A stretch of 64,000 bases of DNA from Escherichia phage MX01, in sequence record NC_031934.1. One strand, 5' to 3'. Numbering within the stretch: position 1 is the first letter of the stretch; each line of letters opens with the position of its first letter. The translations under genes and the position numbers were made by a program. The notes beneath the pieces were generated by a model. The model worked only from the letters and a program-made list of their open reading frames with translations, did not search any database and was not told the DNA's origin. Below, in pieces: positions 3,073 through 9,896 of this stretch.

Positions 3073-4890
3073 TTACGACATCCAGGCCTTACGGAGTTGA
3101 GGGTCATTACCAAGGAGCATTTCGAACTGTTCTTTCCAATCTTCAGGTAATTGAACAACATCAAATTTAGGGTCTTGAATCATTCGACGGTATTCAGCTT
3201 TCTCAAGAGAACCTAGTCCTTTGATATAGCGAATAGAATGTTTTGGTAGAGAGTCCTTAGCTTTGGTATAACTAGGGACATCATAGAACCATTCCTGTTC
3301 TTTACCAACCTGGGCAATAATTACCGGAGTTTTACAGAAACGTACTCGGCCTTGTTCGAACAATTCAGGCCATTGACTAAAGAAGGCTAGCAATGATGGA
3401 TAAATCGAGCCAGTACCATCCACATCGGCATCAGTCATAATAGCAATATTACGATAGTTAGTTTTCTCTGCAGGTTCACCAATAACCAATCCAGTGATTG
3501 CACAGATATCAAATAGTTCCTTGTTCTTCATGATATCTGTTGCTGTCATTCCCCAGGTATTCATAACCTTACCACGTAATGGATAGCCACCTTGAAGGTC
3601 TTTATTACGAACTTCAATGAAAGGACCCATAGCGGAATCACCTTCGGTTAGGAACAGGGTTGTATCGGCATCTTTGCCGTATAAGTTAGCTTTAATATGC
3701 TTATGGACCTTGGCTTTAGAAGCTTTCTTAGCGGCTTTAGTTTCAGCTGCCTTTTCGGCTGCTAATTTACGTGCTAAAGCAGCTTCAACGATAGGCATAA
3801 TCAACCCATCGACCTTAAGAATAGCTGTGGCAATTTTCTTAGCATCAATTTGGATATGGTTACGAATCTCGCCAAATGGAGATGTTAAGCGCTCTTTAGT
3901 CTGTGAATCAAAACGCATGTTGCTCATATCACGAATGAACATCACCATCGTAAGGCATTCTTTAACTCGTGCCTTACTTACTTCGATGCCTTTATATTTC
4001 TTCTTGATGCCTGGCAAGAGATGTTCGCAGATATCATCAAACACACATTCAACATGATGACCACCATTCTTAGTATGAATATTGTTCACATAAGTTAGGT
4101 GACGGAATCCATCCGGAGAAGGAGTAAATGCCATTGAAACATTATCAGTTTCTTGGATTACAAAGTCTTCACCAAATTGCTTAGCATACTTTTTAAAGTT
4201 GCCATCTACTTTTTTACCATTAAAAGTAAATTGAATATCAGGATAAATTACGGCCAGAGTTTGCAATCGGTCTAATGTAATATCCAGATAAATTTGCGAC
4301 AGGCTATTTTCTTCGAAATGGCTAAAGTCCGGAGTGAATATAACAGAAGTACCCTTACCTTTAGATTTCTTAGTAGACCAACCTTTGTTTTCCATTCCGT
4401 TTGAACAGTTGACAGTAATCTCATTCTCACCATCAGAGGTGATGCCTGTGAACAAAACAGAGAAGATATTAGTTAAACTACTACCGACACCATTCATGCC
4501 GCCTGTCTTACGCTCAGTGTCATCTCCAAAGTTACCACCTGCCTTTGGAATAGTCCATGCAGCTACAGGACCTGGAATTTGTTCACCGTTTTGATCGATG
4601 ACCATTGCTTGTGGAATACCACGACCATTATCAGAAACTGAAACCTGGTTATTCTTAATTTGGACATCAATTTTATTTGCGAATTTAAAATTGGTACGAA
4701 TAGCTTCATCGACAGAGTTATCAATGATTTCGTCAATTAATTTAACCAGCCCAGGAACATAGTTTACCTGTGTAAAATTACCAAACAGGAATCGACCGTG
4801 AGCTTCATTAGCACTGGAGCCAATATACATCCCACTACGTTTTTTGATATGTTCAATGTCGGACAGTACTTTAATTTCATTCTTAATCAT
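3073..4890 (-). CDS. 39: DNA topoisomerase II large subunit (GyrB-like ATPase + Toprim; unsplit 39/60 form)
   Basis: 605 aa with GHKL ATPase N-terminus and Toprim region; size fits fused gp39+gp60. Confidence 0.88.
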   Translation of the reverse strand: MIKNEIKVLSDIEHIKKRSGMYIGSSANEAHGRFLFGNFTQVNYVPGLVKLIDEIIDNSVDEAIRTNFKFANKIDVQIKNNQVSVSDNGRGIPQAMVIDQNGEQIPGPVAAWTIPKAGGNFGDDTERKTGGMNGVGSSLTNIFSVLFTGITSDGENEITVNCSNGMENKGWSTKKSKGKGTSVIFTPDFSHFEENSLSQIYLDITLDRLQTLAVIYPDIQFTFNGKKVDGNFKKYAKQFGEDFVIQETDNVSMAFTPSPDGFRHLTYVNNIHTKNGGHHVECVFDDICEHLLPGIKKKYKGIEVSKARVKECLTMVMFIRDMSNMRFDSQTKERLTSPFGEIRNHIQIDAKKIATAILKVDGLIMPIVEAALARKLAAEKAAETKAAKKASKAKVHKHIKANLYGKDADTTLFLTEGDSAMGPFIEVRNKDLQGGYPLRGKVMNTWGMTATDIMKNKELFDICAITGLVIGEPAEKTNYRNIAIMTDADVDGTGSIYPSLLAFFSQWPELFEQGRVRFCKTPVIIAQVGKEQEWFYDVPSYTKAKDSLPKHSIRYIKGLGSLEKAEYRRMIQDPKFDVVQLPEDWKEQFEMLLGNDPQLRKAWMS

Positions 4891-4916
4891 GTTATTTCCT
4901 CATGTAGTAGGAGAAT

Positions 4917-4941
4917 ATTATACCACTCCACTTAAAGCAAT
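4917..4941 (-). promoter_or_regulatory. promoter for gene 39: TGGTATAAT -10 with upstream MotA-box-like ATTGCTTTA
   Basis: MotA-box-like motif 10 nt upstream of TATAAT; middle-type geometry approximate. Confidence 0.4.
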
Positions 4942-4956
4942 AAAGGGCCGAAGCCC
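4933..4956 (-). terminator. rho-independent terminator-like hairpin (GGGC-TTCG-GCCC)
   Basis: Hairpin followed by TTTATTGCTTT downstream of lipoprotein gene. Confidence 0.45.
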
Positions 4957-5217
4957 TTAATCAAATCGAATGGTCGACTTTTTAAAGAATAATCCAGAAC
5001 AAACAGTTCCTTCAACCCTTTTACCTGTCGGACCCACAGCAATAAAGCCTGTACGTTGGAAATCATCTTCAGAACAGCCAAATAGGTTGTATCCTGTGAT
5101 TTGGATTTGTTCGTAGCCATTTGCATCCAATACACGGGTAGCATTATCAGCATCAGTACATCCAACCAATGAAACCGCCAATACTAAAGCTGCAATAGAA
5201 CGATTAATATATTTCAT
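4957..5217 (-). CDS. predicted lipoprotein, 86 aa
   Basis: Signal peptide with lipobox LVGC. Confidence 0.55.
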   Translation of the reverse strand: MKYINRSIAALVLAVSLVGCTDADNATRVLDANGYEQIQITGYNLFGCSEDDFQRTGFIAVGPTGKRVEGTVCSGLFFKKSTIRFD

Positions 5218-5223
5218 AATTTC

Positions 5224-5400
5224 TCACTTAGTCAGCAGGTCGTAAAAACCGCCATTAACATGTTTAGGAGCCGAGACTAACCGAACAGCCAGCCGATGGC
5301 AATCAGGACAAACATCATTATCTCTTTCAGAGATTTTCTTGATTTTTTCGTATTCTTTTGCACAGTCTTCAGATTGGCATTTGTAATCATAAAGTGGCAT
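5224..5400 (-). CDS. zinc-ribbon protein, about 58 aa
   Basis: CxxC...CPDC pair; start moved to ATG (MPLYDYKC) preceded by AAGGAG. Confidence 0.5.
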   Translation of the reverse strand: MPLYDYKCQSEDCAKEYEKIKKISERDNDVCPDCHRLAVRLVSAPKHVNGGFYDLLTK

Positions 5401-5611
5401 TATAAGTCTCCTTCCAGAATTCAGTACCTTCAGCAGTGATTTCACGGAACACTGCATAGATAGGGGTTTTATCACCCTGATTTTCGTATACATAAACCGA
5501 CGATAAATGAGAAAACGTATCAGAATGTTCCTTTTGAACCACGATTAAATCAGGGTTGAACAGAACATCTTCAAATTCTTCACGAGTCGAGTTCATCGTA
5601 ACTTTAGCCAT
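5387..5611 (-). CDS. hypothetical protein, 74 aa
   Basis: ATG start with upstream promoter-like element at 5642-5671. Confidence 0.5.
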   Translation of the reverse strand: MAKVTMNSTREEFEDVLFNPDLIVVQKEHSDTFSHLSSVYVYENQGDKTPIYAVFREITAEGTEFWKETYNATL

Positions 5612-5641
5612 TTTATTTTCCTCTCATTTGTTGATAGGGTA

Positions 5642-5671
5642 ATCTTATCACTACCCTACCATATTGTATAC
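5642..5671 (-). promoter_or_regulatory. early promoter-like element (GTATAC-N18-TAAGAT)
   Basis: Degenerate copy of the recurring cassette. Confidence 0.35.
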
Positions 5672-5684
5672 TGTTTTTTAAACT

Positions 5685-6251
5685 TTATGCAAAATGAATA
5701 TCAGCATACTCAACGATAAAGCTCTCAGGAACAACCTTAAAGGTTCCAAGGAACACGATGTTATAGAGCTTAACGCCTTTTTCAACCCACTGGTCGGTGA
5801 TGTAACCGGACATACTAGTGGTTTCATAAGTCGGACCGTACTTGCACTTGTATTCAAACGGTTTAGGTGAAACGAAAAAGACACCTTTACCTAATTTCCA
5901 TTTGAAATCAACACCAACATGAGATTGGTCAATAGTTTCAACGTCTTGAGCTACTACGCCACGGATATCATTGCTTTCACATACATACCCATCATGGGAT
6001 TCAACTTCTTCAACTACAGGAGCGATGTATCCGGTAAATTCAGTCGATTCCAAGAATTTAGCACGCACATAAGCGAATTGAGTTTCAGTCTGGCCATTTT
6101 TAGGAATGATACGCACTTTTACTTCAGAATTTTCTTCACTGACACCTTCTTTAAGTTGGATGCTAACAACTTCAACTAAACAGCCTGCAGCTTTTGAACG
6201 AGACTTTTTGGATACACGAACAATACCGCCGATATCGGAAATAGTAATCAT
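5685..6251 (-). CDS. hypothetical protein, 188 aa (paralog of next gene by C-terminal motif)
   Basis: C-terminus GYITDQWVEKGVKLYNIVFLGTFKVVP resembles C-terminus of 6325-7080. Confidence 0.55.
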   Translation of the reverse strand: MITISDIGGIVRVSKKSRSKAAGCLVEVVSIQLKEGVSEENSEVKVRIIPKNGQTETQFAYVRAKFLESTEFTGYIAPVVEEVESHDGYVCESNDIRGVVAQDVETIDQSHVGVDFKWKLGKGVFFVSPKPFEYKCKYGPTYETTSMSGYITDQWVEKGVKLYNIVFLGTFKVVPESFIVEYADIHFA

Positions 6252-6324
6252 AATTTTTCTCTCTTGGTTAAAGGTTTATTCTCCATGAGAGCCATTATAA
6301 CATGGCCCTCGATAAAGTAAACTA

Positions 6325-7080
6325 TTAATTCAATACATTAACCACTGCACTACGAGGTACTACACTAAAATCACCTGCATGGACAACGTTCAGCAGCTCA
6401 ACACCGTCTTCAACCCACTGGTCTGTTACCCAACCACAGATAGGATTATCAAAAGGACGACGGATAGACACAGCAGCACACAGCAGGTCGGTAGGGTCTT
6501 GTTCTTCAACTTCTTGGAACAGGATTAACTCTGCTTCATAAACCAGGTTTTTCTCTATTTTGTTATTGTCTAAACGACGACCGTGGATGACGTAAGATTT
6601 GGCAAACCAGTCACTTTTAGCAAATTCTTCAACAATAAATTCGCCTTCGCCAAAAACATCAGTCAGAGTTTTATAACCAGAAATCAAGGCCTTAGTTTTA
6701 ATTTCAGGTTCAACCAGTTTGTAGGTTTTGCCGATTTCGATAGTCTGAGTAGTCATAGGTGATTCCTTAATTTCCGGTGGTTTAACAGGGCATACATAAG
6801 TGCTTAAAACATCAAAATCAATTAGCTGGCTTGCCATTGGGGCCAAACGAATAAATGAATCAATTTCTCGTTGTGACAAACGAATGGTGTGGATTTCCGG
6901 AACACCGCATTCTTGAACTGTTACGGATTTAATATTATCAAACTCGTCAGGTTCAATAGAAAGAATACGGAACTCGTTACCTTTAGTCATCTTTTTAAGG
7001 ATGTCATAAGCTTGGTTGTGGAGCTTAAGGGCTGAAAACGGCGTAACAATATATTTGGCATTCGGGTCAAAAGTGTTCAT
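6325..7080 (-). CDS. hypothetical protein, 251 aa (paralog of previous gene by C-terminal motif)
   Basis: C-terminus GWVTDQWVEDGVELLNVVHAGDFSVVP. Confidence 0.55.
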   Translation of the reverse strand: MNTFDPNAKYIVTPFSALKLHNQAYDILKKMTKGNEFRILSIEPDEFDNIKSVTVQECGVPEIHTIRLSQREIDSFIRLAPMASQLIDFDVLSTYVCPVKPPEIKESPMTTQTIEIGKTYKLVEPEIKTKALISGYKTLTDVFGEGEFIVEEFAKSDWFAKSYVIHGRRLDNNKIEKNLVYEAELILFQEVEEQDPTDLLCAAVSIRRPFDNPICGWVTDQWVEDGVELLNVVHAGDFSVVPRSAVVNVLN

Positions 7081-7586
7081 AATTTTCTCATTTCAATAAA
7101 ATCTACAAGTTCGGCATAGGATTTGCGGAACATTACTTGGCGGCCACCGATGACAACCTCATCTTCTGGTATTTCGTAAACAGCAAGATAGAATCCTTTA
7201 GAAGATAATTCTTCACGCTCTTCACGGGTGAACCAGCGCATCATATCATACTCACTGGCAAAAGCAAAATGGTAGAGATTAACAAACCAACCTGGAATAT
7301 AATCATCACAGCCTTCATAATCAGGCTGGTTCCACTTAGTTCTAATGGTTTTATTAGAATTTTCCACCAACAACTTGTCTTGACCTGGTAGCGGAATATT
7401 TTTATTATTGGTATGGTGGTGTCTAAAATTAGGTTTGTCGAAACCTACTTCTAATAACCAACCTTCGCTCCATTCATCAAACGAGCCTCTATACGGTGTT
7501 AATTGGCGGCACTGTTGGTGAGTGATTGCTATAACATCGCTGTTATCTAAGATACTGAACGATGACTCCACTCGATAAATTTTCAT
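7077..7586 (-). CDS. hypothetical protein, 169 aa
   Basis: ATG with AGGAG SD and canonical early promoter upstream. Confidence 0.6.
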   Translation of the reverse strand: MKIYRVESSFSILDNSDVIAITHQQCRQLTPYRGSFDEWSEGWLLEVGFDKPNFRHHHTNNKNIPLPGQDKLLVENSNKTIRTKWNQPDYEGCDDYIPGWFVNLYHFAFASEYDMMRWFTREEREELSSKGFYLAVYEIPEDEVVIGGRQVMFRKSYAELVDFIEMRKL

Positions 7587-7613
7587 TTTGTTCTCCTCGT
7601 GTTGATAGGGTAG

Positions 7614-7642
7614 ATAATATCATGTCATGAGGAGAAGTAAAC
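7614..7642 (-). promoter_or_regulatory. early promoter (GTTTAC-N17-TATTAT)
   Basis: Cassette followed by AGGAG SD and ATG of 169-aa gene. Confidence 0.6.
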
Positions 7643-7646
7643 ACTT

Positions 7647-8321
7647 TTATCGATTTTTTATACTTAATGGGTCAGGATTCTCAGGGACATCTTCCAAGCC
7701 CAAGGCGTACCGTTGAGCGTATTTCAGCATCAAGATATCCTTGGCACAGTCATGGATGGAGTCATGAGCAACAAAGCCATTCAATGTTCCGTTAGGCAGA
7801 GGACACATGCTCAATCCACGAGTTAGTGAATATGCTTCAATAGCTGTACGGATGTCACGTTGGTTCCAGAATTTAACCGGTTCTAATTTACTGGTATCGA
7901 TTTCATTCTCAGGAACCCCTTCAGAACGATAAGCATCACGAATAAGGTCGACTAAGATAGGAAAGTCAAAGGACATTCCACGACACCACATCTGTGATTT
8001 CCATTGGTCCACTTCGTTTTTACGGCAGTATTCCAGGAAATTACCAAGGCCAATAGAAGTGGACACATCAATTTCAGATGGAGCCAGGTTTTTACGTGCT
8101 TCAGGTCCTTGCTCTTTCCACCACTGTAACGTGCTTTTAGAAAACAGACGTTTATCACGTTGAGAAGCGAGGTCAAATTTAATACGAAGGCCACGTTGAG
8201 TAAGCTCTTCAAACGTTTCTACAACCTCAGGATTAGGGTCGTAAGCAATTACGGCTAGGTCGATAACCGCTGCATTTTGAGTAGTGGCAAAGGTTTCAAA
8301 GTCAATAATTATATCTTTCAT
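7647..8321 (-). CDS. dexA: exonuclease A (DEDD-type 3'-5' exonuclease)
   Basis: 224 aa; IIDFET motif and strong similarity to recalled T4 DexA. Confidence 0.85.
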   Translation of the reverse strand: MKDIIIDFETFATTQNAAVIDLAVIAYDPNPEVVETFEELTQRGLRIKFDLASQRDKRLFSKSTLQWWKEQGPEARKNLAPSEIDVSTSIGLGNFLEYCRKNEVDQWKSQMWCRGMSFDFPILVDLIRDAYRSEGVPENEIDTSKLEPVKFWNQRDIRTAIEAYSLTRGLSMCPLPNGTLNGFVAHDSIHDCAKDILMLKYAQRYALGLEDVPENPDPLSIKNR

Positions 8322-8557
8322 TTAACGTACCTCATAAGGTCTCGGATTTGGCCGACGGTGTAGTCTTCAATATAAACCGAAGAGATATTGTCGTCCATCA
8401 GATTTTGTACTGCAATAAAATCACTTTCAATCTCTTTAAGAGAGTTCAGGACAGTATGGGCCTTTTGCCTAATGCTGATATTATTTTGGTTGACCTTAAT
8501 AATATATTCAGTTTCAAATTTCAACTTATAAAATTGGTCTTTGGTTACTTTAATCAT
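8318..8557 (-). CDS. hypothetical protein, about 79 aa
   Basis: Start moved to internal ATG with GAGGA SD to avoid overlap with dda. Confidence 0.45.
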   Translation of the reverse strand: MIKVTKDQFYKLKFETEYIIKVNQNNISIRQKAHTVLNSLKEIESDFIAVQNLMDDNISSVYIEDYTVGQIRDLMRYVK

Positions 8558-8564
8558 ATTTTCC

Positions 8565-9896
8565 TCAAACGTAATAGGCATCAGTACGAGCACGAGTAAT
8601 ACTAACATAAGCTAGCTGTGAAGCTAAACTCACATCAGCCATATGCATACACGGGGTATAGATGAAACTGTTCTGGACTGTGAGGCCCTGCGATTTATGA
8701 ACAGTGCTCACCGGAAGAGCTCGAACCTTAGTAAACATTCTCTTAGCTTTCCAAAAATCAGCCCACTTAGGTTTCTTACCCGTTCCACGCATGGCTTTGT
8801 ATTCAGTAGCAACCTTAGCCAAGAAATAATGGAACTTCTCGACTGAAGCCTCATCGATGACCTTTAAATGCTCTACATAGTACTCGTCATCTTCATCGAT
8901 AGATTCTACTTGAAGGTCCCAGTAATTAATCATTTGACGAGTGCCTACATCCTTGGCAGACAAGAACAATGAGGTGTGGTTCACATCCAGAATACGAACC
9001 ATTTGGCCATTATTAAAAATGGTTTCAGAGAATTTCTTGCCGTCGTATTCAAGTTCCTTCATAAAAGGCTCTTGCATTACTAGGATTTCACCCTTAATAT
9101 AAGGCGCATCGGTTTCATAAAGCTTTTTACGAATAATACTATTCAGCTTTTCAACCGATTTATTTGTATAAGCAAACATCCTATTCTCAAACAGTGCATC
9201 AGCATCCTTTACGATGGAAAAATAATTCATCATAAAATCTTTTAATGCTGTTTGGGATTTAAAACCGTGGACCCCGTGGTCTTCGAATATACAATCTCTA
9301 AACCATCCACCATTACGGATTTCAGTAGCCACCTCAATGATAGGAGCATTACTACGCATCACTTCAGTCAAATGTAATTGTTTGATTTTTGGATGCGTAA
9401 AGAATGGAGACAACTGCGGACTACCATCACTTCCAGGTTCCACTGGCTGTAGCTGAGCTCTGTCGCCAATCCCTAATACAGTACACCACGGTGGCACGGA
9501 AGATTCGATAATCTTAAACAGCTTACCGTCAATCATCGAGCCTTCATCAACAACCAGCACATTACATTTGCTCAAGTCAGGAGCTTCGCGCTGTTCAAAG
9601 ATGTCCTGGTCTTCGTATGTGGTAGGGTTAATCTTTAAGATTCGATGGATTGTTGATGCTTCTTGACCTGCGAGTTTCGACAACACCTTTTTGGCCGCAT
9701 GGGTGGGTGCAGTCAAAATAACTCCGAGTTCACCGTTCTTGACTAGATGGTCAAGAATAAATTTGGTAAGGGTTGTTTTACCCGTACCAGCAGGGCCGTT
9801 CAATGTAATCCATTCGCCCTTACGTCGTTTAATAGCTTCAATGATTTCTTTAAAAGCCGTCCTCTGGCCGATGTTCAAGTCTTCAAATGTAATCAT
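8565..9896 (-). CDS. dda: Dda 5'-3' DNA helicase (SF1)
   Basis: 443 aa; Walker A GPAGTGKTT; strong similarity to recalled T4 Dda. Confidence 0.9.
   Translation of the reverse strand: MITFEDLNIGQRTAFKEIIEAIKRRKGEWITLNGPAGTGKTTLTKFILDHLVKNGELGVILTAPTHAAKKVLSKLAGQEASTIHRILKINPTTYEDQDIFEQREAPDLSKCNVLVVDEGSMIDGKLFKIIESSVPPWCTVLGIGDRAQLQPVEPGSDGSPQLSPFFTHPKIKQLHLTEVMRSNAPIIEVATEIRNGGWFRDCIFEDHGVHGFKSQTALKDFMMNYFSIVKDADALFENRMFAYTNKSVEKLNSIIRKKLYETDAPYIKGEILVMQEPFMKELEYDGKKFSETIFNNGQMVRILDVNHTSLFLSAKDVGTRQMINYWDLQVESIDEDDEYYVEHLKVIDEASVEKFHYFLAKVATEYKAMRGTGKKPKWADFWKAKRMFTKVRALPVSTVHKSQGLTVQNSFIYTPCMHMADVSLASQLAYVSITRARTDAYYV

Follow-up and report, generated by a model that had tools for sequence, protein, structure and literature searches.

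The stretch of DNA considered here (the window, 64,000 nucleotides of Escherichia phage MX01, NC_031934.1) contains two neighbouring genes whose products of 188 and 251 amino acids had been described in an earlier note, made from the sequence alone, as tandem paralogs with unrelated N-terminal regions and a common C-terminal domain. This raises the questions of what these genes are, how they came to share a domain and what that domain might do. The two genes and the segment that they share are as follows.

5685-6251, minus strand: 188-aa ORF from the ORF list, with the coordinates given in the earlier note, assigned below to motB; KOW-like N-domain aa 1-68, acidic low-confidence linker aa 69-109, C-terminal beta-barrel aa 110-188
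6325-7080, minus strand: 251-aa ORF from the same list, co-oriented with the 188-aa ORF, assigned below to the long form of motB.1; N-terminal extension aa 1-82, linker aa 83-108, LSm-like domain aa 109-194, MotB-type barrel aa 195-251
5712-5819, minus strand: shared module in MotB, aa 145-180, TSMSGYITDQWVEKGVKLYNIVFLGTFKVVPESFIV (from BLASTP and DSSP; repeat D1 at 5767-5814)
6340-6447, minus strand: shared module in MotB.1, aa 212-247, NPICGWVTDQWVEDGVELLNVVHAGDFSVVPRSAVV (from BLASTP; repeat D1 at 6395-6442)

Pairwise alignment had been proposed as the check on the paralogy, with a non-significant result counting against it, and the similarity found was far beyond chance. BLASTP aligned MotB aa 145-180 with MotB.1 aa 212-247 without gaps (19/36 residues identical, 25/36 positive, E=9e-11), and the Smith-Waterman score of the two proteins was 106, against 32.1 +/- 5.0 for 2000 shuffles (maximum 60, z=14.8). 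The motif expression of the earlier note matched once in each protein, at aa 149 of the 188-aa protein and aa 216 of the 251-aa protein. The N-terminal parts of the two proteins scored 28 against 30.3 +/- 5.1 for shuffles, so no similarity was detectable between them and they are, as claimed, unrelated by this measure. To call the C-termini “near-identical” was an overstatement, as identity is 53% in protein and 58% in DNA (102 nt compared), with third codon positions equal in 12 of 34 codons. The DNA core of the module is a 48-nt direct repeat (D1, 5767-5814 and 6395-6442) at 75% identity, and a run of 15 nt, GACCAGTGGGTTGAA, is identical in the two genes. No inverted repeats were found in 5600-7650, nor any RNA family in an Rfam scan of both strands of 4800-8700 at E<=0.1.

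The 188-aa protein matches the whole of the Pfam motB model PF17613 (E=1.4e-61, 207.5 bits, gathering cutoff 25 bits) and, over aa 5-188, phrog_1671 (E=6e-71), and it is 55% identical to T4 MotB. The 251-aa protein also passes the PF17613 cutoff (35.2 bits) but only with aa 211-246, which correspond to model positions 118-153 of 162; it matches phrog_2333 with E=1.6e-78 and is 56% identical to T4 MotB.1 over aa 173-223. As the window is 94-96% identical to the Dhakavirus-type phages ABTNLsp5, IME540 and IME341, and the two genes are annotated in IME341 as MotB and MotB.1, sequence comparison identifies the window as Dhakavirus-like, the 188-aa protein as MotB and the 251-aa protein as a long variant of MotB.1. 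The “domain of unknown function” of the earlier note is thus a genuine domain, but not an anonymous one, being the C-terminal part of PF17613 in the products of two named genes. Synteny of the region was checked against IME341, IME08 and T4, and the order of genes (39, 39.1, 39.2, cef, motB, motB.1, motB.2, dexA, dda) is that of T4 minus goF, with gene 39 (3073-4890) and dexA (7647-8321) flanking the pair as had been stated. The 188-aa protein carries the VS..SRSKAAG motif in its KOW-like N-domain and GVKLYN..VF.G..KV.PES in its C-domain on alignment with MotB orthologs, and its gene lies between cef and motB.1 and is preceded by a promoter-like site (a consensus match only). Neighbouring features are as follows.

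6294-6321, minus strand: promoter-like site in the motB.1-motB spacer, TTTACT-16-TATAAT with TG (consensus scan only)
7077-7586, minus strand: motB.2 homolog of 169 aa, 68% identical to T4 MotB.2, phrog_1106
7614-7641, minus strand: promoter-like site 5' of motB.2, TTTACT-16-TATTAT with TG (consensus scan only)

The upstream neighbour motB.2 lacks the shared module, and its stop codon is overlapped by the ATG of motB.1 (ATGA). Judged by their match to the consensus, the site at 7614-7641 would drive motB.2 together with motB.1, while that at 6294-6321 would provide motB with its own promoter of the T4 early type.

The MotB/MotB.1 pair and its common C-domain are already known, having been published in 2021 and captured by both Pfam and PHROGs, and the observation is therefore real but ordinary and carries little weight as a discovery. 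Patterson-West et al. 2021 (PMC7827196) described the common C-terminal domain, suggested duplication as its origin, included the Dhakavirus phages JS98, JS10, QL01 and WG01 in their tables, placed MotB.1 in their Categories 2-4, and predicted by an HHpred-based approach that MotB consists of a KOW N-domain and an OB-fold C-domain. MotB of T4 was shown in PMC7827196 to bind DNA without sequence specificity, to copurify with H-NS and StpA and to change the footprint of H-NS; it is further established that it coats DNA, that its binding is tight and that it raises burst size twofold. Toxicity in E. coli, high-affinity DNA binding and H-NS/StpA copurification are known only for T4 MotB (PMC6070864, PMC7827196), and an interaction of MotB with H-NS independent of DNA was not found by the authors of PMC7827196. 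For MotB.1, Kim et al. 2025 (PMC12152347) reported that the N-domain has an LSm-like fold common to GoF and Frd.2.

In the AlphaFold2 model of MotB (mean pLDDT 71.9) aa 10-68 form an N-terminal barrel and aa 123-182 a five-stranded C-terminal one (pLDDT about 88), with a linker between them (aa 71-109) that is disordered and acidic. DSSP on the model places strands at 141-157, 160-167, 170-175 and 179-182, so that in this model the module (aa 145-180) takes up the last part of strand 2 and continues into strand 5 of the C-terminal barrel. The protein resembles T4 MotB in its full-length Pfam match, its 55% identity, its position between cef and motB.1, and its layout of a KOW-like N-domain followed by the conserved C-domain; a distant member of the MotB family passes the Pfam KOW cutoff. 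It differs from T4 MotB in having a 24-residue acidic insert in the linker, VEEVESHDGYVCESNDIRGVVAQD, absent in T4, which makes it acidic overall (pI 5.3 compared to 9.2). This insert (aa 80-103, 5943-6014, minus strand) is variably present among otherwise close homologs.

The 251-aa protein has a more complex layout, for which two further features need to be given.

6499-6756, minus strand: LSm-like domain of MotB.1, aa 109-194 (AlphaFold2 pLDDT about 85, the best-modelled part; fold from PMC12152347)
6835-7080, minus strand: extra N-terminal 82 aa of MotB.1 (low-confidence model: helix, three strands, helix)

In its AlphaFold2 model (mean pLDDT 64.6) aa 15-79 form an N-terminal unit of low confidence and aa 80-111 a disordered linker, followed by a domain that is modelled well (aa 112-190) and by a five-stranded C-terminal barrel (aa 203-250). 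Assignment of the middle domain to the LSm-like N-domain of the MotB.1 group is supported by this model, by alignment of the T4 MotB.1 N-terminal domain (residues 1-82) with aa 109-194 at about 20% identity, and by the match of aa 109-194 to phrog_2333 positions 41-130 (1e-25), the same model region that T4 MotB.1 matches. There was also a weak match of aa 113-195 to the GoF family phrog_622 (E=6e-5, compared to 4.6e-38 for T4 GoF itself), which is consistent with the link to the GoF fold made in PMC12152347, although GoF and Frd.2 differ from MotB.1 in lacking the MotB-type C-terminal module. No Pfam LSM or Hfq match to the window proteins was found at E<=1, and likeness to LSm/Sm proteins proper (e.g. 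Hfq) is the fold resemblance reported in PMC12152347 alone. The C-domain carries the MotB.1 signature DPTDLL..PF..GWVTDQW.EDGVELLNVVH..VVPRS at aa 195-247, which, including the module at aa 212-247, is invariant or nearly so in 22 homologs.

With T4 MotB.1 (UniProt P39415) the window protein shares this signature, the LSm-like domain that precedes it and a position directly upstream of motB, but at 251 aa it is far longer than the 143 aa of most T4 records or the 119 aa of the T4 reference, because it adds a D-x-D-x-x-S-x-Y leader and the 82-aa N-terminal domain. That domain was found by tblastn in 8 of 50,697 phage records and had no PHROG or Pfam match. Its predicted helix-three strands-helix order resembles that of the LSm-like domain, but the profile comparison was not significant (hhalign 6% probability, P=0.006), although the helix and first strand aligned in the expected register. 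Met109 of MotB.1 (6754-6768, minus strand) is invariant in 22 homologs and has AAGGA 7 nt upstream, and in phage PP01 a 141-aa MotB.1 form is annotated that starts at the equivalent of Met109; translation might start internally here and yield a short isoform. An acidic motif, [ILVF]-D-x-D-[VI]-x-[SAC]-[TM]-Y, occurs at aa 87-95 (6796-6822, minus strand) and recurs in P0221, P0224, P0225 and P0226, each time in a predicted disordered linker (before the LSm-like domain in the window protein, directly before the C-domain in other members), and it may be a linear interaction motif.

In the models the shared domain is a small five-stranded beta-barrel of roughly 55-80 residues, and the motif of the earlier note is its conserved core, strands 2-5. 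Its modelled strand order looks SH3/Tudor-like and so departs from the published OB-fold prediction: the OB strand order, a helix between strands 3 and 4 and similarity to OB-fold proteins were not found. An SH3-like assignment, for which one would look for five strands, a 3-10 turn ahead of strand 5 and structural similarity to other proteins of that superfold, is tentative; the Tudor/chromo/PWWP/KOW SH3-like barrels (e.g. 53BP1 tandem Tudor 3lgf, PHF19 Tudor 6wau, Spt5 KOW 5ohq) are the closest known systems of this kind, at a sequence identity of only 10-19%. This is a resemblance of fold and not family membership, and searches of solved structures found no kinship to Tudor/KOW-type barrels at the sequence level: the module profile and the MotB family profile gave nothing meaningful (best E=0.93, a kinase). 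A search of BFVD returned only family members plus weak noise. Archaeal eIF5A (1BKB, 2EIF), the published structural analogue of MotB, shares with it the architecture of two barrels with a KOW/SH3-like N-domain, and has an SH3-like N-domain and an OB-fold C-domain.

The distribution of the module was examined in a sample of 24 IMG/VR loci plus reference loci. Genomes of the T-even type (Tequatrovirus, Dhakavirus, Gaprivervirus) carry the tandem motB.1-motB pair and RB69-like loci (L011, L012, L015) have three module-bearing genes in tandem, while in phages that infect Klebsiella (F48-like), Edwardsiella (PEi20) and Enterobacter (CIP9) just one gene occupies the dexA-(motB.2)-X-cef position (L021-L027, at about 3170-3665 in each). 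This single gene encodes a MotB-like KOW N-domain joined to a C-domain with 54-73% identity to MotB.1 compared to 49-52% to MotB, and it matches both phrog_1671 and phrog_2333. The earlier note had also advised looking for the motif in other T4-like genomes, where the module was indeed present in the more than 50 homologs examined of roughly 290 found; it is the most conserved part in both the MotB and MotB.1 families. A module profile run against 1.84 billion representative proteins gave 32 matches at E<=0.001, of which the 24 that were read are small MotB/MotB.1-like proteins except for two repetitive ones (P0236, P0239), so the family appears narrowly confined. Matches to P0240 and P0241 (862 and 837 aa), each with several short matching stretches, look spurious. 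In one metagenomic protein of 43 aa, P0235, the N-terminus of MotB.2 (MKIYRVESSFSILDY) runs straight into the final 28 residues of the MotB.1 module; it looks like a deletion variant without most of motB.2 and motB.1.

Four accounts of the similarity between the two genes were weighed. That it is a matter of chance or composition, as might be entertained for a segment that is short (36 aa) and valine-rich, has practically no probability left: the BLASTP E value and shuffle z given above rule it out, and the Pfam and PHROG cross-hits are reciprocal and the segment is conserved over the homologs examined. Recent gene conversion or recombination between the two genes would suit their adjacency and co-orientation, the 15-nt identical run and the 48-nt repeat at 75% identity, and T4-type phages recombine readily. 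It is nevertheless highly improbable and was rejected, both on the codon-position identities (just 12/34 third positions match) and on the paralog signatures, as GVKLYN..PES in MotB and GVELLN..PRS in MotB.1 both hold throughout the loci of Tequatrovirus, Mosigvirus, Gaprivervirus and Dhakavirus, whereas repeated conversion would erase their separation. Within each paralog type dN/dS is about 0.10 with dS about 1 or saturated, and the types are conserved across genera; with synonymous sites saturated, the similarity is best explained by a duplication long ago and subsequent divergence.

The module might instead be a mobile cassette that domain shuffling attached to unrelated genes on separate occasions, without any duplication of a whole gene. 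In keeping with this, it is preceded variously by a KOW-like domain, by a single LSm-like domain or a pair of them, or by the extra 82-aa domain plus an LSm-like one, and it also occurs in the 43-aa MotB.2-module fusion. We consider this improbable, as all copies found sit at the same dexA-cef locus of T4-like phages and so few proteins match the profile (22 of the 24 read being small and MotB/MotB.1-like); this confinement to a single locus makes local tandem duplication with N-domain replacement the simpler account. On sequence evidence, then, it is very probable that the genes are motB and motB.1 and that they go back to an old tandem duplication at the dexA-cef locus, after which an N-domain was replaced. 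The duplication and divergence proposed in the earlier note was therefore right as to a homologous domain in tandem genes but incomplete, as the N-domain was also exchanged. The simplest history would begin with an ancestral gene encoding a KOW domain plus the barrel, which would have been duplicated in tandem at the dexA-cef locus in the T-even lineage; one copy would then have diverged in its barrel while retaining the basic KOW-like domain, giving MotB, and the other would have kept the barrel and had its KOW head swapped for one or more acidic LSm-like domains, giving MotB.1. The single gene found outside the T-even group, with its KOW head and MotB.1-type tail, is what gives this order of events for the family.

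As to what the barrel does, both families retain D, W, E, G, L, N, V, G and V without exception, and Q and another G almost without exception. There is no basic residue among these, and in every homolog examined the module is either acidic or neutral.

Mean net charge in MotB: module -2.0, C-domain -1.8, KOW-like N-domain +5.2
Mean net charge in MotB.1: module -4.1, C-domain -4.3, whole protein about -10

As there is no invariant basic residue and every homolog is acidic or neutral here, the module is probably not a DNA-contacting surface. A reading that we put forward tentatively, at somewhat below even chances, is that the module is a domain for partner binding or self-association and that contact with DNA is made elsewhere: the shared barrel would be a common domain of this kind tethered to different nucleic-acid-binding N-domains, with MotB contacting DNA mainly via the KOW-like domain and its S-x-S-R-S-K-A-A-G motif. 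The competing view is that the module is a DNA-binding element, OB-fold or cold-shock-like, and MotB.1 a second nucleoid or DNA-binding protein that uses the same surface as MotB. It accords with the HHpred-based prediction in PMC7827196, with the strong binding of DNA by MotB, in which, as in MotB.1, the module is the most conserved part, and with the frequency with which small beta-barrels bind nucleic acids, but the SH3/Tudor-like look and the acidity of the shared domain argue against it and we regard it as less likely than not, though still a live alternative. An acidic SH3/Tudor-like C-domain would serve to focus experiments in domain dissection. A more specific proposal, speculative and on balance unlikely, is that the C-terminal barrel is a dedicated Tudor-like protein-protein domain through which MotB and MotB.1 would associate, each with itself or with the other, or would both bind to a single nucleoid factor of the host. 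If so, a DNA-binding KOW head (MotB) and LSm heads of the RNA-binding type (MotB.1) would be delivered to the same site, and the lack of most of this domain in the T4 reference MotB.1 might explain the null results reported for it. At two aligned positions of the module the charges are swapped between the paralogs (K161/E176 in MotB, GVK..PES; E228/R243 in MotB.1, GVE..PRS), a pattern compatible with a conserved salt bridge, whether inside the barrel or across an interface.

The short T4 reference protein results from one extra base. The motB.1 of NC_000866.4 / AF158101.6 has ..TGGATTGGAAGATGG.. in place of the ..TGGATTGAAGATGG.. found in all relatives. Because of the extra G (ATTGGAAG compared to ATTGAAG; NC_000866.4 about 7142-7336, L001 3643-3791) the ORF stops after 119 aa, within the shared module, the remainder of which (EDGVELLNVVHAGEYSVVPRSAVVAILN, 28 codons) can still be read in the next frame. 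A 72-nt probe spanning the site was 100% identical only to the two reference records and matched 13 other T4 records with a one-base gap, and T4T and MT984581 have an annotated 143-aa MotB.1 with a complete module (comparison loci L028 and L029, 387-818). The extra G is a sequencing error or else a mutation particular to one stock. MotB.1 is described in PMC12152347 as 13.8 kDa with NC_000866.4 coordinates cited, and neither “frameshift” nor “truncat” occurs in the text of that paper. Truncation of the 119-aa reference MotB.1 within the shared domain could affect how published experiments on MotB.1 are read.

Elsewhere at this locus, goF is cleanly missing between 39.2 and cef (window about 5397-5400), where a 405-bp segment of IME341 (IME341 locus 2002-2406) is absent from the window, and the goF-less junction aligns in one piece only in the closest relatives ABTNLsp5 and IME540. 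The mechanical ORF for 39.2 has 89 aa (5224-5493, minus strand) and overlaps cef by 107 nt, but its zinc-ribbon match and its homologs start at Met32 (5400), which makes 58 aa the probable length of the real product. Gene 39 (minus strand) encodes 605 aa in the window compared to 516 aa in T4, which suggests an unsplit large topoisomerase subunit without the T4-style division into genes 39 and 60.
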